IMG/VR virus record: IMGVR_UViG_3300009081_000009
Span: 1-64,000 of that record
Strand: one strand, 5' to 3'
DNA: 64,000 nt
DNA from: a virus
The notes below the pieces were generated by a model. The model saw only the letters and a program-made list of their open reading frames with translations, had not been told where the DNA came from and ran no database searches. Of this stretch, positions 7,960 through 22,139 are shown in pieces (within the stretch, counting starts at the first letter, position 1; the number at the start of each line of letters is the position of its first letter). The translations under genes were made by a program, and so were the position numbers.

Positions 7960-8814
7960 TTAGCCGAATTTATTGAATCCAAGCCCTTTATATGTATCAA
8001 TCATACGTAGGGTGTCGCGAGTATCATTTTCCATTAATTCATCAGTTCCCATCGAAGCAGCTTCAATTAATGTTTCTGTACTAACGTCAGGACTGTGATT
8101 TACTTTGTGCTGTTTTAGTCCCTTTCCCAAACTTTCTAACTTAGGTGCTTTAGGAGTTGCAGTACCTGATACCTCGGCATTGATTTCATCCAATGCATCT
8201 TTAACTTGATCCAAATTAATTTCACCACTGAATTGATTATCTTCCGTGCTATCAGTAAATAATTCTGAGTGATCACCATCTAAAAAGTTAGCGATGGCAT
8301 CTTTATCAATTTCTCTAATATCTTTGTTCTTGAAAAATTCTATTGCAGCATCTACGATTTCAGGACGCATTCCCTTTGTTTCGTTCATTATCATAACTAA
8401 TTTAAGATTATCATTATATAAATCTTTAATCGCTTTACGTTCATCATATGCTTTCTGTAAACGTGTATCTGCTTCTTTCAAATCTTGTTGTAATTTTTTT
8501 GTAGCTTCTGTTGTAGGTATACCAGCGTCTTCGAGTAAATTAACCATTTCCTTTATTATCCCATAAAATTTTTTATTAATCATATCAGATGCGTTACCTC
8601 TGACGTTTTCAACTAAGACGCTACTAACTTTATTTTCAAATTTATTTGTAAGGTTTTCTACCAACGAATCAAATTTCTTAGAATTTTCCTTTTCTAAGGT
8701 ATCGATTTTATTATCAATACTTTCATTTATGGATCGTTCTATCTTAGACAATACCGTTGCTGGCATTGCTGATAGTTCAGTGTCATTCAAAAAATCCTTT
8801 AATTGTATAGCCAT
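7960..8814 (-). CDS. gp22: Prohead core scaffold protein (gp22-like)
   Basis: Coiled-coil acidic protein between protease and capsid genes, as in T4 synteny. Confidence 0.7.
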   Translation of the reverse strand: MAIQLKDFLNDTELSAMPATVLSKIERSINESIDNKIDTLEKENSKKFDSLVENLTNKFENKVSSVLVENVRGNASDMINKKFYGIIKEMVNLLEDAGIPTTEATKKLQQDLKEADTRLQKAYDERKAIKDLYNDNLKLVMIMNETKGMRPEIVDAAIEFFKNKDIREIDKDAIANFLDGDHSELFTDSTEDNQFSGEINLDQVKDALDEINAEVSGTATPKAPKLESLGKGLKQHKVNHSPDVSTETLIEAASMGTDELMENDTRDTLRMIDTYKGLGFNKFG

Positions 8815-8823
8815 ATTGTTACC

Positions 8824-9561
8824 TTACACCAAAAATTTGTTTTTATAACCAAGCATTGCACTTTCTAACGCAACCCGATCAAATTTATTATATCCAACTT
8901 TTAATTGACGATTCATCATGAATTCTATGCGACCACGCTCAACGCTTTCAGTCAATACCTTTAATGAGCTAGGAGCTACATTTTCAAATTTATGACTAAT
9001 TAATGCTTTATTATCAAATGATGGATTTCCAACCACATCAATAGTAATAAATCTATAATCATCAGCAACTTCGTAGTATCCTCTACTACTTTCAACCACA
9101 GATCCAGCTCCGCGAAGTGAATATCCGGGAACATATCCAATTTTCAATAAACCAGCTAAATTATGACCAGCATCTGTTTCTTCTGCCACAATCATCTTAC
9201 AGAACAATTTATTTCCATTAAAATAAAGCTCTTCAACACGTGCGCAGGTTTTCATTAAATTCATTTCAAATACTGAATAATCCTTTCCTTCACCATCTGC
9301 GGTTAATCTAGGATGATTCAATTCAGCAGCTAATCTTCCATAAGGAATCATATCTTTATTTAATCTAGCTACTTCAGCTTCCAAAATTCTCTTTGGATAT
9401 GATCTGCCGTTAATACCCGGAATATCGCATACTATAGCAGTACCAAAAATTTTCAAAAATTTAGTCTTTTTTCCAGTTATATCAACACCATCTTCTAGGA
9501 TAACACGAGCATCCTCAAAACATGGAGAACTAATCATATCTTCTTCATACTTCTTATACAT
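8824..9561 (-). CDS. gp21: Prohead protease (T4 gp21 family)
   Basis: NGRSYP, ELNHP, GYSLRGAGS, TIDVVGNPS motifs. Confidence 0.93.
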   Translation of the reverse strand: MYKKYEEDMISSPCFEDARVILEDGVDITGKKTKFLKIFGTAIVCDIPGINGRSYPKRILEAEVARLNKDMIPYGRLAAELNHPRLTADGEGKDYSVFEMNLMKTCARVEELYFNGNKLFCKMIVAEETDAGHNLAGLLKIGYVPGYSLRGAGSVVESSRGYYEVADDYRFITIDVVGNPSFDNKALISHKFENVAPSSLKVLTESVERGRIEFMMNRQLKVGYNKFDRVALESAMLGYKNKFLV

Positions 9562-12507: not shown

Positions 12508-14739
12508 TTATGCTTGATCACTCTTACCAGACGCATTATTAACTGCATCATTATGATCTTTTAATATTGGATTTGTCCATGTACTCGATTTCTTTAAATT
12601 TGTATTCAACATAACAAAGGATACAGTAGGAGGTGCATTATTCTTGAATGATGCATTTGCAAATCCTGTAGGAGCCTTCTCATTTTGCCATACTTCAATG
12701 TGGTATGCTGGATCACTTCCCGGCCCTTTTGGACTTGGCCCTAAGAACGCCTTTAATATTCCATCAGCCTTTGCTTGAAGTAATACAGTTCTGAGACTTT
12801 CGCTCTTATTCGTAGGTGATAATCGTGATGGACTTATATCAACAGCTTGTATAATAGTAGGATCTGCTGAATGTTTAGATATAGATTGAGGAGGTGATTT
12901 TTTAATAGCCTCTATCATATCACCCTTTACTTTACTTATCTGTGATGGATCTGTAAATGGTTCATTACTTTTTAAACCATATGTTGATTTAGCTTCATCA
13001 TATATAGCAACAATAGCTTTACCAGCAGGTGCATATGATACTCGTTTATTACTTTGTAAATTATTAAACATAGTAGCAGCCTGTACATCAGCAGGACGAT
13101 ATAAGCTAGTAACAATTACCTCAGTAACACCAGCCGATCCACATAATGATTTAATTACATTTGCAGTTAATTCACTTAATTGTTCTGATTTTACCCCTGA
13201 TCCGAATTTTATTGTGACTGAACCCTCTTCTGGTGTTGCCAATGCTCCACTATCAGCAGTACCACCAGCAACACCTTCATTTGGATATCTTAATATTGTA
13301 GCACCCATGATTTTATCAAAATTTCTATTTTTTAATTCAGATTGACCATGAAATACATCTAACTTGGATATAGAAGCACCGTATTCAACTGAAGGTTTTC
13401 CTAATCCTTTATATATAAGATTTGCCTCGGATACTCTTCGTTTACGCATTCTTATATCAGTTTCCGTTGAATTTGTACTGTATGTTAGTCGTAGTAAAAT
13501 ATCAGCTATCCATGTAAAATACTGATTAGCAATTGTACTATTCTTAGGAAGTCCTTTTGATGCCACCATTGGGCCAGTCGTTGTTACAGTAACTGCCTTT
13601 CCTGTTGAATCTATTGTTTGATCAAACCCAGAAATACCATACATATTGACACTATATTGATAACCAGTTAAATAATAAATACCCATAGTAACACAATAAC
13701 TAATAAATCCAGCCTCAGAACTCTTACTAGGATCGATTGATAATCCATTAGTCCATAAAAAACTACACACAGCAGTTTTTACATATTCTGGACATGAATT
13801 ATGTGTTAATGCACCCCAATGAGAATGTGCCCAATTTTGTCTATTATTAATCACATCCCATAAAGTTGATTGCACGTACTTAAAAAATGAGGCTTGTATC
13901 TGAGCATCAGTAATAGTGAATCCGCTATATTTACTATCAGCAGCAATCTGATTTTCATTCATAGTGGCTGCTGCTTTTACAATAGCGAATTGTTCCGCTG
14001 TCAATCCACCCTTAACATCACCTAGAGGTGTTAAATTTTTATCTACTGTATTAACAGCAAATACATTTTTTATAAATAAGTCTCGTCGAGCACCACCTTG
14101 ATCTAATACTATATTAGCACCCAATCTAGTTTTACCATCTCCTGTAAAATAAAACTTGTTACTCTTTATATTCTCTTGTTGATATAAAAAATCCCAATTT
14201 GGTTGAAAAAATCCTGCTTTGAATGTATTTGCGATACTAACAGGCAATCCATCCAATCCGATTGCTATAGGTGGAATTAAATCAGCATTAAATGGACTAG
14301 ATCCCATAACTGATGTGGTCTGTGCTTCTGCCATTTGTCTTGATGCATTAATTCCTTGTAATGGCGCAAGTGGCCCTTGACCTATAGCAGACAATCCTGC
14401 TCCTACTGCATTTAATTGAGCTGCATTTGCACTTCCTCTTATATCTAATGTATCAACTATAGCTTGCATATCATTAGTAATAATGCCATTATCACCATCC
14501 GCTAAAAAATATGAAAACATATCAGCAATTGCAGTTGATAATTGACTCATACGTGTTTGATTTTCAACAGGAACTTGCTCCCGTTGCTCTTTAGTAAGAC
14601 CATTATTTTGGTCATTTACGTCATAAAAACCATAACTATTTAATATTGAATAAAATTTACCCTCACGACCCTTTGCTGAATCGTAAGTTCGAGTAATGGC
14701 TGTACCCATTCTACCGGAATAATGTGAATTTGTTGGCAT
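12508..14739 (-). CDS. Virion-associated peptidoglycan hydrolase (lysozyme-like region plus C-terminal M15-type peptidase)
   Basis: RKRRVSEANL resembles the GH24 C-terminal motif; TSLYR...SKH....AVDIS...YHIE matches the M15 Zn-ligand layout. Confidence 0.6.
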   Translation of the reverse strand: MPTNSHYSGRMGTAITRTYDSAKGREGKFYSILNSYGFYDVNDQNNGLTKEQREQVPVENQTRMSQLSTAIADMFSYFLADGDNGIITNDMQAIVDTLDIRGSANAAQLNAVGAGLSAIGQGPLAPLQGINASRQMAEAQTTSVMGSSPFNADLIPPIAIGLDGLPVSIANTFKAGFFQPNWDFLYQQENIKSNKFYFTGDGKTRLGANIVLDQGGARRDLFIKNVFAVNTVDKNLTPLGDVKGGLTAEQFAIVKAAATMNENQIAADSKYSGFTITDAQIQASFFKYVQSTLWDVINNRQNWAHSHWGALTHNSCPEYVKTAVCSFLWTNGLSIDPSKSSEAGFISYCVTMGIYYLTGYQYSVNMYGISGFDQTIDSTGKAVTVTTTGPMVASKGLPKNSTIANQYFTWIADILLRLTYSTNSTETDIRMRKRRVSEANLIYKGLGKPSVEYGASISKLDVFHGQSELKNRNFDKIMGATILRYPNEGVAGGTADSGALATPEEGSVTIKFGSGVKSEQLSELTANVIKSLCGSAGVTEVIVTSLYRPADVQAATMFNNLQSNKRVSYAPAGKAIVAIYDEAKSTYGLKSNEPFTDPSQISKVKGDMIEAIKKSPPQSISKHSADPTIIQAVDISPSRLSPTNKSESLRTVLLQAKADGILKAFLGPSPKGPGSDPAYHIEVWQNEKAPTGFANASFKNNAPPTVSFVMLNTNLKKSSTWTNPILKDHNDAVNNASGKSDQA

Positions 14740-17502: not shown

Positions 17503-17585
17503 TTGTCCATGTAGGAGTCGAACCTACAGTATCCTTTCGGATGCCAGATTCAAAATCTGGTGAGCTACCATTACTCTAATGGACA
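17503..17585 (-). tRNA. tRNA-Gln(TTG) with atypical long variable arm
   Basis: CCAGA-TTTTGAA-TCTGG anticodon arm; variable arm ATCC-GAAA-GGAT; U1-A72. Confidence 0.88.
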
Positions 17586-17669: not shown

Positions 17670-17759
17670 TTATTTATCACATTTAGAACACTTAATTTCA
17701 TTATTATAAGTGAAATATAATAATGAACCACATCTATCACACATCTTTACATAATACAT
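17670..17759 (-). CDS. 29-aa C4 zinc-ribbon microprotein MYYVKMCDRCGSLLYFTYNNEIKCSKCDK
   Basis: Strong SD GAGGTG; CxxC-x13-CxxC; fills the gap between terminator T3 and the first tRNA-Gln. Confidence 0.7.
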   Translation of the reverse strand: MYYVKMCDRCGSLLYFTYNNEIKCSKCDK

Positions 17760-17776
17760 ATACACCTCTATATACG

Positions 17777-17804
17777 AAAAGAACTCTTGCTTCTGCAAGA
17801 GTCC
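17777..17804 (-). terminator. Attenuator terminator T3 upstream of the tRNA-Gln block
   Basis: GGACTCTTGC-AGAA-GCAAGAGTTC-TTTT. Confidence 0.8.
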
Positions 17805-17827
17805 CTAATTTATTTGACATAGCAACA

Positions 17828-17945: not shown

Positions 17946-18017
17946 TGATCCCACAGGAAATCGAATCCTGCTCCACGGATTAAAAGTCCGTTGCTTAACC
18001 TTCCAAGCTCTGAGATC
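17946..18017 (-). tRNA. tRNA-Lys(TTT), divergent (G8, 4-nt variable loop)
   Basis: ACGGA-CTTTTAA-TCCGT anticodon arm; CAGGA-TTCGATT-TCCTG T arm. Confidence 0.85.
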
Positions 18018-18023
18018 ATATAG

Positions 18024-18095
18024 TGGTTCCACAGGGATTCGAACCCTGTTCCATCGGTTAAGAGCCGATTGCATCTCCTATTATGCTTTGGAACC
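18024..18095 (-). tRNA. tRNA-Lys(CTT) (A8, 4-nt variable loop)
   Basis: ATCGG-CTCTTAA-CCGAT; GGTTCCA/TGGAACC acceptor. Confidence 0.88.
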
Positions 18096-18099
18096 TTAG

Positions 18100-18174
18100 T
18101 GGAACTGGTGGGACTTGAACCCACGACCCATCGCTTAAAAGGCGATTGCTCTAAACCAACTGAGCTACAATTCC
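18100..18174 (-). tRNA. tRNA-Lys(TTT)
   Basis: ATCGC-CTTTTAA-GCGAT; canonical D and T arms. Confidence 0.95.
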
Positions 18175-18177
18175 ATA

Positions 18178-18249
18178 TGGGTGTGGAGAGATTTGAACTC
18201 TCGACTCGCTGATTAAAAGTCAGCTACTCTACCACTGAGTTACACACCC
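18178..18249 (-). tRNA. tRNA-Lys(TTT)
   Basis: GCTGA-CTTTTAA-TCAGC; GGGTGTG/CACACCC acceptor. Confidence 0.95.
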
Positions 18250-18250
18250 T

Positions 18251-18287
18251 AAAAAATAAAAAACCTCACAACAACTGTTGCGAGGTT
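18251..18287 (-). terminator. Attenuator terminator T2 upstream of the tRNA-Lys block
   Basis: AACCTCGCAAC-AGTT-GTTGTGAGGTT-TTTTATTTTTT; 5' arm also complementary to GCGAGGTT in leader L2. Confidence 0.9.
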
Positions 18288-18311
18288 CAGTGAAAATCAT
18301 ATAATATGATG

Positions 18312-18371
18312 TTACACAACAACCTCGCTTGGTTGCTTTTTCTGTTTATTTTGTTTACTAATCATCTGCAT
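18312..18371 (-). CDS. Leader peptide L2 MQMISKQNKQKKQPSEVVV (Lys/Gln sensor)
   Basis: AGGA SD; 4 Lys and 3 Gln codons within KQNKQKKQ; 3' end carries the antiterminator strand GCGAGGTT. Confidence 0.85.
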   Translation of the reverse strand: MQMISKQNKQKKQPSEVVV

Positions 18372-18401
18372 AATCTTATCCTATTAAAAACATTCATTTA
18401 G

Positions 18402-18473
18402 TGGTTGCACGGGTATCGAACCCGATCTCCAGATTTTCAGTCTAGCGCATCTACCATATATGCTATCACAACC
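18402..18473 (-). tRNA. tRNA-Phe(GAA), atypical acceptor/T-stem junction
   Basis: CTAGA-CTGAAAA-TCTGG anticodon arm; 8 nt before the UA linker and a 4-bp T stem. Confidence 0.75.
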
Positions 18474-18477
18474 ATAG

Positions 18478-18550
18478 TGGTCAGGATCGGAGTTGAACCG
18501 ATGACGCAAGCATTTTCAGTGCTTCGCTCTACCTACTGAGCTACCTGACC
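18478..18550 (-). tRNA. tRNA-Phe(GAA)
   Basis: AAGCA-CTGAAAA-TGCTT; GGTCAGG/CCTGACC acceptor. Confidence 0.95.
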
Positions 18551-18671
18551 ATATAAAAAAGTCACTTTCATCAGTATTTTCACTAAATCGAGATAATCCC
18601 ATTTTTCTATCCTCAAGTAAACTAAGCTACCACTATGCATCTAACTTATAGGTCTAGATACTTGACCTTTA

Positions 18672-18753
18672 TGGATCAGGCAGGATTCGAACCTGCAATG
18701 CCCGAAGGCGGGTGGGTTACAGCCACCTGAACAACCAATTGTTCAACTGATCC
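18672..18753 (-). tRNA. tRNA-Tyr(GTA)
   Basis: GGTGG-CTGTAAC-CCACC; long variable arm GCC-TTCG-GGC. Confidence 0.93.
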
Positions 18754-18759
18754 TTATAG

Positions 18760-18832
18760 TGGATGTGGTAGGATTTGAACCTACTTCCCCTGCATTATGA
18801 GAGCAGTGCTCGACCAATTGAGCTTCACATCC
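18760..18832 (-). tRNA. tRNA with CAT anticodon (Ile2/lysidine type favoured, elongator Met possible)
   Basis: CTGCT-CTCATAA-TGCAG; G1-C72, so not an initiator; leader L1 has two ATA codons. Confidence 0.85.
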
Positions 18833-18836
18833 ATAG

Positions 18837-18917
18837 TGGGTTAGGTAGGGGTCGAACCTACAGTGCCCGAAGGCGGGGGATTTACAGTCCCCGGAGCAAC
18901 CATTGCTCAACTAACCC
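18837..18917 (-). tRNA. tRNA-Tyr(GTA)
   Basis: GGGGA-CTGTAAA-TCCCC; long variable arm. Confidence 0.95.
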
Positions 18918-18925
18918 AAATTACA

Positions 18926-18959
18926 TAACAAAAACCCACTTCTTTTGGAAGTGGGCTTT
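18926..18959 (-). terminator. Attenuator terminator T1 upstream of the Tyr/CAT/Phe block
   Basis: GCCCACTTC-CAAAA-GAAGTGGGT-TTTTGTT; CACTTCC also complementary to GGAAGTG in leader L1. Confidence 0.9.
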
Positions 18960-18993
18960 ATAACTTTTGCCATACGCATTTTACGTATATAAG

Positions 18994-19065
18994 TTATCGC
19001 ATCACACTTCCTTTCGGAGTTGTTTTTATAAATCGATAATACTTATATATGCGTTTCATGTTCAT
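18994..19065 (-). CDS. Leader peptide L1 MNMKRIYKYYRFIKTTPKGSVMR (Tyr/Ile-AUA/Phe/Lys sensor)
   Basis: Codon run AAA CGC ATA TAT AAG TAT TAT CGA TTT ATA AAA; antiterminator strand GGAAGTG near the 3' end. Confidence 0.85.
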   Translation of the reverse strand: MNMKRIYKYYRFIKTTPKGSVMR

Positions 19066-19072
19066 ACCTTAT

Positions 19073-19102
19073 AATATAGTTCTTTTTAAGACACTTTGAT
19101 AA
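19073..19102 (-). promoter_or_regulatory. Possible second promoter directly ahead of L1
   Basis: AAAAAGAAC-TATATT-A context identical to the L3 promoter; weak -35 TTATCA at 18-nt spacing. Confidence 0.5.
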
Positions 19103-19143: not shown

Positions 19144-19172
19144 AATATAGGAAAAAATTCAATGAATGTCAA
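19144..19172 (-). promoter_or_regulatory. Sigma70-type promoter of the tRNA cluster
   Basis: TTGACA-N17-TATATT. Confidence 0.85.
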
Positions 19173-19186
19173 TGAAAAAGTACAAT

Positions 19187-20809
19187 TTATTCACTTTCCG
19201 GTGGATTGTACTTAATATACTCAGCATATTCATCCATAATTCGCTTATTTTCCGCTTTTTGCCACTTATCGGCCTCATCCAACTGTTTTTTAGTTCCTAT
19301 TGGTTTTGGGGGTTTACGATTCATATCCTTTTCTGAGTCTCTTATATCACTTGCATTCATTTTCAACCTCATTAAATAGTCATCTGGATATTCTTCTAAT
19401 TGCCATTTACTAACACCAGTTACTTTTTTAAGAAATTCTTTTTTATTATTGTCATTCATTGCCTTAAACATAGAAATGATTGAGAATATTGTTTTATCTC
19501 TATAACTCATATCATCTGAATTCAACTTTGATTTTGTGGTAGGTGGATACCATCCCTGTCCTTCTATGATTCCAGCACCCTCTTCCATTTTTCGTAACCT
19601 ATCATAATAATCAGGAATTTCAGCTTCATGATCCTTTGCGATTTCATACGCTATCTCTGGATTATTAGTATGTTCAGACTCTACATCTACGCCCATATCC
19701 AATTGATCCTCTATATCCTCTACAGGAAGTCCATGTTTCTTTGCTATGTCTTCTGGTGTCATTCCATCAGCTCTGCCACCAATAAGATGCTCAGCAGCTT
19801 CGAATCGACCTTTGGGTTTACTATAATGTTCATTCATGACTGTCTTTGTCAATCCTGCATCACGTAACATTAATTCACCGCGACATTTACCATATGATCC
19901 AAGTCTGGTTAAGTCACCACCCATCAATTCCATACTACCCATTAAATCAAATACACCAGAAATAAATTCATTCTCCCATAATTGTTCCATTTGCTCTGAT
20001 GTTAAATAACGAGGACTTCTACTATTACCTCTGACATCAGCTTCATGTGTTAATATAGCTTGACAATACAATTTGAATGGAATCCCAAGCAATCGTTCAA
20101 ATTCTTTTTGTGTAATTCCATCTACTCTATCGCTAATTAACCACAAATCTTCGGGATCACTATCATATACTTTAGCAGCAACACCAGACTGTTGAACATA
20201 TCCATCAGCCTCAGTTCCATTCTGAGCAATTCCTTTAGCATTTTTTGCCAATTTTAATACTTTATCATTACCTAAATCAAATGTTGTACGAGAACTTCCT
20301 GTACCCAATTGAGATAATTTTGATTTAGCATATTTAACTCTTGCAGCAAAACTAGGTAATTGTTTAAATGTTTTTACATCAAATGGCATATCTTGAATAG
20401 ATGTATCTAATCCTTCCAATATGCAAGTTATTAATGAATCATCAGCATTACCTCTAAATGATTCAATGAAAATACGTAATGCGTTATATGATTCTGTCAT
20501 TGGTCTTACCATTGAGTTTGATATAGTGAAATCTTTATGTCGGCCTTTATTTGGTTTAAATCCTAACCCTTTATAAAATTTTAGTAGTTTACCTTTTTTG
20601 CCACCAAAATCAGTTGATGGTGATAGTGATACTTGTTTCTTTACACTATTTGCGTATTGAATTATATCATTCATAATATTAGTCCCTATTCCTGAATTTC
20701 GTAATTCAGGATTGACTACTATTTTAGATACTTCTACACTATTACGTCCATCCCAGACAAATAAGTCAGCGACATCTTTATATTTATCTTTGATTTGATC
20801 TAATGTCAT
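19187..20809 (-). CDS. Multidomain protein: GNAT acetyltransferase + kinase-like + DUF5661-like
   Basis: IVVNPELRNSGIGTNIM (GNAT motif A); LGTGSSR..F...VLKLAKN..GIAQN..E, DL..LGSYG, LRDAG (kinase-like); GVDVESEHT...EIAKDH..E.PDYYDRL (DUF5661-like). Start placed at the ATG right after the upstream stop. Confidence 0.7.
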   Translation of the reverse strand: MTLDQIKDKYKDVADLFVWDGRNSVEVSKIVVNPELRNSGIGTNIMNDIIQYANSVKKQVSLSPSTDFGGKKGKLLKFYKGLGFKPNKGRHKDFTISNSMVRPMTESYNALRIFIESFRGNADDSLITCILEGLDTSIQDMPFDVKTFKQLPSFAARVKYAKSKLSQLGTGSSRTTFDLGNDKVLKLAKNAKGIAQNGTEADGYVQQSGVAAKVYDSDPEDLWLISDRVDGITQKEFERLLGIPFKLYCQAILTHEADVRGNSRSPRYLTSEQMEQLWENEFISGVFDLMGSMELMGGDLTRLGSYGKCRGELMLRDAGLTKTVMNEHYSKPKGRFEAAEHLIGGRADGMTPEDIAKKHGLPVEDIEDQLDMGVDVESEHTNNPEIAYEIAKDHEAEIPDYYDRLRKMEEGAGIIEGQGWYPPTTKSKLNSDDMSYRDKTIFSIISMFKAMNDNNKKEFLKKVTGVSKWQLEEYPDDYLMRLKMNASDIRDSEKDMNRKPPKPIGTKKQLDEADKWQKAENKRIMDEYAEYIKYNPPESE

Positions 20810-20810
20810 A

Positions 20811-22139
20811 TTAGCTCTCATCATATTCAATTATAATATTTGGTGTCGCTTGTCCAACTGTTGAGCTTCCTGTAACTTTAAGTTGTAAATACACATAATC
20901 AGTTTCACCAGCAGACATAGGATTATTTATACCAGCCCCAACAGTTTTTATATTATAGTTTCCTACCAATCCAGTTCTTGTATTTGTAACTTGGTTTCCA
21001 TAACAAGTATTTCTCACTGATTGATATCCTAAAATTTTATAACCAGCTTCCTTTACTGCTATTGGATCAATAGTAACAATTTCATTAACAGTCCCACCAT
21101 TTTCCACTGTAATTCCGTAAATTACCATGTGATATTCATTGTTTGCGATCACATCATCTTTATTATCTAGGAATCGTATAGGATCTGTATCGCCATTAAT
21201 ATTAATAAATCTATATATTCGATTTTCTAAAAAATTAAGGACAGGACTTTTTGTTCCATTCAGATAGAATGCTTTGGTTCCTGCTTGTGTTTCTCTGACT
21301 TCCACTGTATATTCTTCGGTAGTCGCTGGAGTCGTAGATAGATCTATCCATGTTATAGTATATCCGATTTCTGTTTTTATTACATCACCATACTTAAATC
21401 CATTAGGATATGCAGTCAATAAAGCACTAGATGCCGTTAATGTAACTACTCGTTCACCGGATACCGTAGTAACGACAATATCAGAACTTGATATAGGCAA
21501 ATTAGTAGCAGGATCTAAAATAGTAAATACAATAGCACCATTAGTTTTATCTATAAATTGATACGTACTACCTTGAACAATTGGAACATCTATCTGTCTG
21601 TCTTCATTTAGATAAATTAGATTTCCCGTTCCGATATCATGCATACTTATGTTATAATTAATTACAGCTAACCGTTCATCAACATATTGACCGTAATTAT
21701 TATTTACAGTTAATAAAAATGGACTTTCTTTAGTATAATTCCAAATACTATTAGTAGCTATCATAGATACAGTATTTGTTGGTTTTGTATAAGATACTGA
21801 ATTTCCTATATATAAAGTTGGAATGTTTAAATCAGCAGGAGCTTCGGTTTCTGGATATATTCTAATATGACTCAACTGATTAGATGGTGGAGTTTTTAGA
21901 ACTAACTTAAATACAGATTCAAATGAATAGGCTATAGCATCTGGATCATCCGGTCTATACACGCAATATGTATTGGCATCAGATTTATCATCGCTTGGTA
22001 CAACAACACCGGGATTCGGCATTTGTTGATATACAGCAGGAACAGCAGCATCGATTCTTTTTATACCAATGCTGGTTACAGGAGTTCCGAATGTTCCGTC
22101 TTTACCTGTATACTTATAAATGTTAAAAGTTGCACTCAT
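20811..22139 (-). CDS. Virion structural protein, unknown function
   Basis: 442 aa, Thr/Val/Asn-rich beta composition; directly downstream of the neck gene. Confidence 0.5.
   Translation of the reverse strand: MSATFNIYKYTGKDGTFGTPVTSIGIKRIDAAVPAVYQQMPNPGVVVPSDDKSDANTYCVYRPDDPDAIAYSFESVFKLVLKTPPSNQLSHIRIYPETEAPADLNIPTLYIGNSVSYTKPTNTVSMIATNSIWNYTKESPFLLTVNNNYGQYVDERLAVINYNISMHDIGTGNLIYLNEDRQIDVPIVQGSTYQFIDKTNGAIVFTILDPATNLPISSSDIVVTTVSGERVVTLTASSALLTAYPNGFKYGDVIKTEIGYTITWIDLSTTPATTEEYTVEVRETQAGTKAFYLNGTKSPVLNFLENRIYRFININGDTDPIRFLDNKDDVIANNEYHMVIYGITVENGGTVNEIVTIDPIAVKEAGYKILGYQSVRNTCYGNQVTNTRTGLVGNYNIKTVGAGINNPMSAGETDYVYLQLKVTGSSTVGQATPNIIIEYDES

Follow-up and report, generated by a model that had tools for sequence, protein, structure and literature searches.

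A putative leader-peptide transcription attenuator in front of tyrosine, isoleucine, phenylalanine and lysine tRNA genes of an uncultured giant phage

Results and Discussion

Organization of the Locus

The DNA analyzed here belongs to a 164.7-kb IMG/VR virus record whose completeness is estimated at 39%, its source therefore being an uncultured giant phage. The window, i.e., the whole stretch of 64,000 nt that was analyzed, has a GC content of ~32%. Everything relevant to the element described below lies on the minus strand, where a promoter is followed by the leader open reading frame L1, a hairpin, the terminator T1 and, 13 nt past the U tract of the latter, the first tRNA gene (Table 1). 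For comparison, syntenic loci from nine other contigs (five lineages) were collected with the neighboring genes as anchors; these loci are referred to by an L followed by three digits.

Two promoter-like sites precede L1. The distal one is of the sigma-70 type, and the same promoter type is found in front of the other leaders of the genome. The proximal site is degenerate; in L002 and L006 its position is taken by a consensus TTGACA promoter, as seen in an alignment with L002 and in the sequences themselves. L1 contains a second in-frame ATG at 19059, from which 21 codons would be read and which is preceded by an AAGG motif 7 nt upstream. Its core is formed by a patch of codons for Lys (AAA), Arg (CGC), Ile (ATA), Tyr (TAT), Lys (AAG), Tyr (TAT), Tyr (TAT), Arg (CGA), Phe (TTT), Ile (ATA), and Lys (AAA), which agrees codon by codon with the core listed in the first-pass annotation of this DNA.

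The promoter scan revealed no promoter-like site between T1 and the tRNA genes or inside the first two tRNA blocks. This arrangement suggests that the tRNAs of both blocks, the second of which comprises the leader L2, the terminator T2 and four Lys tRNAs, can be made only via read-through of T1. The spacer between tRNA-Tyr and tRNA-Phe in the first block (18551-18671, minus strand) is strongly conserved, at the nucleotide level even in L012, L016, and L028, where the structural protein is ~58% identical. It contains two small hairpins, a Shine-Dalgarno site and an ORF that starts with M-G-x-x-R-F-S, ends with D-F-F and extends into the Phe tRNA; an evident terminator is absent from this spacer. 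At the other end of the locus, the slot of the GNAT-like/DUF5661 gene is variable, with two ART-PolyVal/DUF5661 genes in L012 and shorter DUF5661 genes in L026-L028, and it adjoins a conserved structural module (T4 gp13-like neck protein).

The CAT tRNA of the first block is probably, because of its position, a tRNA-Ile2 and thus a reader of AUA. In L026-L028 the same slot is held by a tRNA-Ile(UAU), an unambiguous AUA reader, and the CAT tRNA of L016, compared along its entire length, shares 82.7% identity with an E. coli tRNA-Ile gene that has a CAT anticodon. A clear match to Ile(CAT) was limited to this L016 tRNA, which occupies the corresponding position. The best E. coli BLAST match of the window's own CAT tRNA is a tRNA-Met (E = 0.2), and BLAST searches against phages and E. 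coli yielded mixed Ile, Met, Lys, and Val matches.

Table 1. Positions of the leaders, terminators, tRNA blocks and neighboring features. Coordinates refer to the window unless marked as genome G000 C1.
Feature	Position	Strand	Evidence or remark
Gene upstream of L1, 547 aa, GNAT-like + DUF5661	19187-20830	minus	ends at 19187
Distal sigma-70-type promoter, TTGACA-N17-TATATT	19144-19172	minus	promoter scan, 11/12 matches
Proximal degenerate promoter-like site, TTATCA-N18-TATATT	19073-19102	minus	9/12 matches
Leader ORF L1, 23 codons	18994-19065	minus	stop TAA 18996-18994
Putative sensor patch, 11 codons	19024-19056	minus	codon-set enrichment; set kept, permuted, in relatives
Antiterminator 5' element GGAAGUG ("region 2")	19005-19011	minus	9-15 nt upstream of L1 stop
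Inner hairpin	18960-18997	minus	5' half holds the stop codon
Intrinsic terminator T1	18926-18959 (stem 18959-18931; U5 18934-18930)	minus	independent terminator scan
tRNA block proposed to be regulated: Tyr(GTA), CAT, Tyr(GTA), 121-nt conserved spacer, Phe(GAA) x2	18401-18917	minus	
Next stage: L2, T2 and four Lys tRNAs	17946-18371	minus	presumably reached only by T1 read-through
Leader L2, alternating Lys/Gln codons	18312-18371	minus	directly before the four Lys tRNAs
Terminator T2	18261-18288	minus	
Third unit: TTGACA-N17-TATATT promoter and leader L3	17828-17925	minus	
Terminator T3	~17777-17805	minus	followed by three Gln tRNAs
Leader ORF, Leu/Ser/Trp/Cys/His block	genome G000 C1 104100-104174	minus	
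Leader ORF, Pro block	genome G000 C1 120772-120858	plus	
Leader ORF, Asn/Arg block	genome G000 C1 123794-123868	plus	
Leader ORF, Glu block	genome G000 C1 124298-124348	plus	
Leader ORF, Ala/Gly/Met/Thr/Ile/Arg/Val/Asp block	genome G000 C1 131277-131363	plus	

Terminator, Antiterminator and Predicted Folding

T1, with the core CCCACUUC/GAAGUGGG and the loop CAAAA, consists of 12 pairs (5 G-C) and folds at -16.2 to -16.5 kcal/mol. Close to the end of L1, the element GGAAGUG (19011-19005) is a perfect complement of CACUUCC (18953-18947), i.e., of the loop-proximal part of the T1 5' arm together with two loop bases. A perfect pairing of these two elements at the 5' arm and loop edge had been claimed in the first-pass annotation, and the exact 7-nt complement was indeed found to be more than an expected coincidence: a Watson-Crick run of at least 7 nt between the T1 5' arm and a 32-nt stop-proximal segment that includes the stop codon occurred in 0.1-0.15% of dinucleotide-preserving shuffles (p 0.001-0.0015). 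The long inner hairpin said to be closed by this pair was recovered as well with both of its arms, AUAACUU (18997-91) pairing with AAGUUAU (18966-60) and UAUACGUA (18989-82) with UGCGUAUG (18978-71), the latter over 8 bp including 2 G-U. This inner hairpin can exist in either state and places region 2 next to region 3.

The whole leader folds at -39.2 kcal/mol (z = -6.0) and the antiterminator span at -19.2 kcal/mol (z = -4.1). An antiterminator able to compete with T1 had originally been assumed. The predicted antiterminator state (-20.9 kcal/mol) falls ~5 kcal/mol short of the terminator state over the same 86 nt (-26.0 kcal/mol). Since the terminator state is the more stable one at equilibrium by this amount, the predicted switch must be kinetic; the antiterminator would form before the terminator and tie up that half of the 5' arm which closes the loop. 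A less stable antiterminator that forms first is also the accepted kinetic picture for the trp attenuator.

In the naked RNA, the sensor codons (~19054-19031) are predicted to pair with the region following the stop codon (~19003-18975). This "1:2" pairing uses the 5' half of the inner hairpin and leaves the T1 arm free, for which reason untranslated RNA is expected to terminate. The 1:2 pairing is present in the naked-RNA minimum free energy structure of five out of seven homologues, and two compensatory pairs occur within the window's lineage. For two homologues, L006 and L016, the antiterminator is favored even in the naked pre-terminator RNA, making the untranslated default uncertain there.

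The effect of a ribosome was modeled by folding the transcript up to the terminator loop while masking a footprint of 15 nt on the 5' side and 11 nt on the 3' side of the A-site codon, for every codon. Of 10 homologues folded in this way 9 were scored, L026 being left out because the script had picked a false terminator/U run. In all nine, the antiterminator formed with the A site anywhere up to the last Lys codon of the patch (one codon earlier in L028), with 7-12 bases of the terminator 5' arm paired to the stop-proximal element, and it was lost one to two codons beyond that limit and at the stop codon. According to these limits, the 3' boundary of the patch coincides in the model with the last stall position that still allows the antiterminator. 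For a terminating ribosome, the assumed footprint reaches GGAAGUG only with its 5' edge (-15 to -9). The masked folds of the nine scored homologues thereby bear out the earlier prediction that a ribosome reaching the stop codon would permit termination and that a stall within the patch would leave the antiterminator free to form. They also support the idea of an OR gate over several tRNA species, which appears structurally sound because in the model a stall at any single patch codon suffices.

Codon Content of L1

Within the patch, Tyr, Phe, ATA, and Lys codons fill 9 of the 11 consecutive positions, in accordance with the previous description of L1 as a multi-codon sensor for Tyr, Ile(AUA), Phe, and Lys. 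For the density of these codons L1 ranks second among 1058 small ATG ORFs in the six frames of the 165-kb genome, with one other small ORF scoring above it on the same codon set. A/T-rich codons are to be expected at 32% GC. The A/T-only codons of L1 are all drawn from AAA, ATA, TAT, and TTT (9/9, compared to a background share of 0.57), and AAT, ATT, and TTA, whose tRNAs sit in other blocks, are absent. This codon-level signal is stronger than that at the amino-acid level. Amino-acid composition, taken by itself, shows only a weak enrichment of L1 for its own block (p ~0.1 for Y/F/I).

No cognate tRNA for the two Arg codons of the patch is found in the block. As these codons are not conserved (CGC is replaced by ACA and CGA by AGC), they probably do not serve as inputs. 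The presence of Lys codons in L1 is explained by L002 and L006, in which the Lys tRNAs are part of the first block and neither L2 nor T2, and hence no second terminator, is present.

Conservation and Covariation Among Relatives

About 10 homologues in five lineages were compared; the paired elements vary only between lineages and not within them. Each relative contains a promoter, a Shine-Dalgarno site with ATG, an ORF of 19-23 codons and a terminator, followed by Tyr, Ile, Phe, and Lys tRNAs. The frame of L1 is the only one open in all seven homologues tested, and a T1-type terminator between leader and tRNAs is conserved in all homologues.

Always located 4-15 nt upstream of the stop codon, the antiterminator element differs between lineages together with the 5' arm of the terminator. 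The window, L002, L004, and L006 combine GGAAGUG with CACUUCC, L012 and L015 GAGUGGG with CCCACUC, L016 GGAGUGG with CCACUCC, L026 and L028 A(C/U)GGGGG with CCCCUGU, and L027 GUGGGGG with CCCCCAC. These are five stems, each with an antiterminator of its own, which points to a covariation of three elements, the antiterminator and both arms of the terminator; it was read from the individual sequences and not from a formal pair count, as the cross-lineage MAFFT alignment misaligns regions 2 and 3.

The L1 cores of the different lineages read Y-K-Y-Y-x-F-I-K, K-I-K-F-Y-Y-F-K, F-K-Q-Q-Y-Y-F-I-Q-K, and Y-F-Y-F-I. Ile in the patch is always encoded by ATA, Lys codons alternate between AAA and AAG, and the positions of the window's two Arg codons are occupied by Thr/Asn and Ser codons. 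The codon set is thus kept, and the peptide tails are unrelated among the relatives; L004 even reads the conserved GGAAGUG in a different frame. In L026-L028, L1 has gained Gln codons and the later tRNAs include both Gln and Lys tRNAs (interleaved in L026 and L028). Judging from the sequences of these loci, the content of the leader appears to follow the content of the tRNA block across the relatives.

The sequencing runs were used as assembled contigs and report on sequence variants only. Contig variants from two wastewater runs carried exclusively synonymous changes in the patch, and non-synonymous changes and indels in the tail and the hairpin. One metatranscriptome run matched only tRNA-like pieces at <95% identity. 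No cultured relative was found in the GenBank phage collection, neither by DNA search nor with the neighboring 442-aa structural protein as query. A search of IMG/VR with a peptide-level DNA pattern of the L1 core returned just the one already known contig, and a metagenome scan added nothing new.

Other Leaders in the Genome

The 165-kb record contains 57-58 tRNA genes, grouped into blocks according to amino acid, and a short ORF precedes each block, mostly with a near-identical promoter and a terminator. Eight leaders stand in front of blocks, and the units together partition all 20 amino acids. When each leader was compared with each block by binomial enrichment, the pairing of the leaders with their own blocks was the best of 40,320 permutations, single-leader p-values reaching 1e-6 (S/L/H/C/W and T/A/I/D/G/V/M/R) and 1e-5 (run of six Gln). 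The leader of the Leu/Ser/Trp/Cys/His block consists almost wholly of these five residues, and the one before the Ala/Gly/Met/Thr/Ile/Arg/Val/Asp block is composed of its respective eight; the remaining leaders contain runs of Asn, of Glu, or of Gln. The weakest match was obtained for the Pro leader, which lacks a clear terminator. For the Pro and the Asn/Arg block, terminators were missed by the automatic terminator finder (the U tract of the latter is interrupted). Of the six leaders with a terminator found by the script, five carry a significant complement to the terminator 5' arm near their stop codon. Because of these matching leader/block pairs and stop-proximal complements throughout the genome, L1 can be regarded, at the level of sequence, as one unit of a repeated design.

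Two further units lie directly downstream of the first block. Immediately ahead of its stop codon, L2 carries GCGAGGTT, which is exactly complementary to AACCTCGC in the T2 arm (shuffle p = 0.0005). L2 is present in L004, L012, L015, and L016 and absent in L002 and L006. The fourth Lys(UUU) tRNA behind it (17946-18017, minus strand) is an Rfam match that was missed by ARAGORN. In the third unit 6 nt separate the end of the -10 element from the ATG, for which reason the L3 mRNA is probably leaderless. L3 contains six consecutive Gln codons, which are kept in L002, L004, L006, and L012; a simple stop-proximal complement to T3 was not found for this leader. Between T3 and the Gln tRNAs lies a 29-codon ORF (17670-17759, minus strand) with two C-x-x-C pairs, zinc-ribbon-like and likewise kept in L002, L004, L006, and L012.

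Proposed Mechanism and Alternative Explanations

The anatomy of the locus, its conservation and its covariation were seen in the sequences, and the energetics of its folds under ribosome masks were calculated. The reading that accommodates them best, and which we consider quite likely, is that L1 and T1 constitute a ribosome-mediated (leader-peptide) transcription attenuator gating the phage tRNAs for Tyr, Ile(AUA), Phe and, further downstream, Lys. In such a scenario host RNA polymerase would start at the sigma-70-type promoter, with a ribosome translating L1 behind it. As long as decoding of the Tyr, Phe, Lys, and AUA-Ile codons proceeds rapidly, the ribosome would arrive at the UAA codon and cover GGAAGUG as well as the inner hairpin's 5' half, T1 would fold, and transcription would stop 13 nt before the first tRNA. 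If any one of the respective aminoacyl-tRNAs is scarce, the ribosome would stall within 19056-19024, leaving GGAAGUG free to pair with CACUUCC once the latter has been transcribed, so that the terminator would not nucleate and the tRNA genes would be read. The fresh tRNAs would in turn relieve the stall, closing a negative feedback loop. Without any translation the sensor codons would pair with the post-stop region and T1 would form, i.e., the default would be off. We thus infer translation of L1, stalling, read-through and feedback from the architecture of the element, and the phage would probably produce these tRNAs only upon a shortage at the ribosome.

It might be argued that the input of such a switch is the overall ribosome or translation status, with L1 acting as a general translation-coupling sensor whose codon composition is incidental. 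The masked folds would allow for this, given that a stall at any codon before region 2, start region included, yields the antiterminator, and A/T-rich codons are common in this genome. This explanation nevertheless appears improbable, as it does not account for the recurrence of the same four codon classes in rearranged order in five lineages with other A/T-only codons excluded, for the Gln codons in L1 where Gln tRNAs follow in the next block, or for the seven other leaders matching their own blocks.

Chance, or an arrangement without regulatory role, is a quite improbable explanation. T1 would then be a constitutive terminator that leaks, or would mark where an early transcript ends, and L1 would be an untranslated, A/T-rich spacer that is open by coincidence. 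The weak enrichment of L1 for its own block by amino-acid composition and the one small ORF with a higher score on the codon set would be compatible with it. It conflicts with the fact that only the L1 frame, with start codon and Shine-Dalgarno site, is open in all homologues tested, with an antiterminator that covaries with five different terminator stems and with the complementarity to T1 (shuffle p = 0.001). Moreover, an unregulated strong terminator 13 nt before promoter-less tRNA genes would make little sense.

Phage-encoded antiterminators are common, and the structured 5' leader could serve as a binding site, so that one could think of a phage or host protein, or of an uncharged tRNA acting in a T-box-like manner, that switches T1 irrespective of the ORF. 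Such factor-mediated antitermination seems very unlikely. The T-box covariance model gave no match at the gathering threshold, no T-box or other riboswitch match appeared at E-values up to 10, and a conserved RNA resembling a specifier loop was not seen. In addition, both the codon composition and the position of the stop codon relative to region 2 are conserved, and these are features that only a translating ribosome could read. The least probable explanation of all is a functional micropeptide as the product of L1, with RNA structures that serve only to end its transcript. It is suggested by the conserved presence and length of the ORF (19-23 codons) and contradicted by the permuted residue order, the unrelated C-terminal tails and the different frame of L004 over GGAAGUG.

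Comparison to Known Systems and Possible Significance

Rfam searches over the locus retrieved only tRNAs at gathering thresholds. The best match below threshold was RF00506 (Thr_leader), which was covered over the full model length with 22.2 bits against a gathering threshold of 55 (E = 0.047). This match is best read as a resemblance in shape and not as membership, and sequence homology between the thr leader and the L1/T1 element is not apparent.

The proposed attenuator has much in common with the ilvGMEDA and thr leaders, which sense Ile/Val/Leu and Thr/Ile, respectively. Shared features are a short leader with several regulatory codon classes, mutually exclusive hairpins, termination favored by a ribosome that has reached the stop codon, and an OR gate. 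The 1:2 pairing known from these leaders to cover the regulatory codons is predicted here for some of the homologues. In contrast to these leaders, the genes following L1 are tRNA genes and not biosynthetic enzymes, the output would replenish the very molecule that is sensed, and the element is phage-borne and one of eight units. The four-region architecture and the less stable antiterminator that forms first are also known from trpL, hisL, pheL, and leuL; unlike these leaders with their codon runs of one class, L1 mixes four classes, and its sister L3 has a his-like run of six Gln codons. In pheST, with its leader pheM, decoding of cognate codons likewise regulates a component of the translation apparatus, the target there being a synthetase in a cellular operon with a single amino-acid input. 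T-box riboswitches resemble the proposed element in that tRNA status is sensed and a terminator/antiterminator pair is switched, and they differ from it in binding uncharged tRNA directly without the need for an ORF.

The known classical leader-peptide attenuators all regulate genes for amino-acid biosynthesis or for synthetases, whereas the genes downstream of L1 are tRNAs only. From its sequence features, the element would extend classical leader-peptide attenuation to tRNA genes as a target, and in the full-text literature that was searched, leader-peptide attenuation directed at tRNA genes was not described.

It has long been asked for what reason tRNA genes are carried by phages. Explanations commonly given are compensation of codon usage, the replacement of host tRNAs that have been degraded, and evasion of anticodon nucleases. 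Should the attenuator reading be correct, the phage would measure decoding capacity and supply tRNAs on demand, one amino-acid class at a time, a prediction that is testable by a reporter for each tRNA class. The leaders would furthermore represent compact natural multi-input sensors of tRNA availability. Host anticodon nucleases have been reported to cut tRNA-Lys or tRNA-Tyr, and such cutting, or tRNA decay during infection, would cause stalls on exactly these codons. It is conceivable, though rather doubtful, that the leaders act as alarm sensors for an attack on the tRNA pool, with stalls switching on replacement tRNAs class by class. If so, the eight leaders would form a modular, demand-driven tRNA supply, and the question of why phages carry tRNAs would become directly testable.

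Further Observations on the tRNA Arrays

The 83-nt "Gln(UUG)" tRNA of the window (17503-17585, minus strand) has a long variable arm. In the Gln block of L012, ARAGORN predicts a long-arm tRNA of 85 nt with the anticodon UUA (14473-14557); by its anticodon this suppressor-like call would read UAA. A UUA call of 89 nt is located just upstream of tRNA-Tyr in L016 (15617-15705), and a tRNA with the four-base anticodon UAUA was predicted by ARAGORN in the Leu/Ser block (G000 C1 103227-103309, minus strand). Additionally, homing-endonuclease-like genes and tRNA remnants are interspersed between the tRNA genes of relatives, and not of the window. These inserts lie at 8560-9470 and 9770-10720 in L002, 11050-12020 in L006, 11030-11450 in L004 and ~15900-16830 in L016, and they probably drive the reshuffling of tRNAs behind the leaders.
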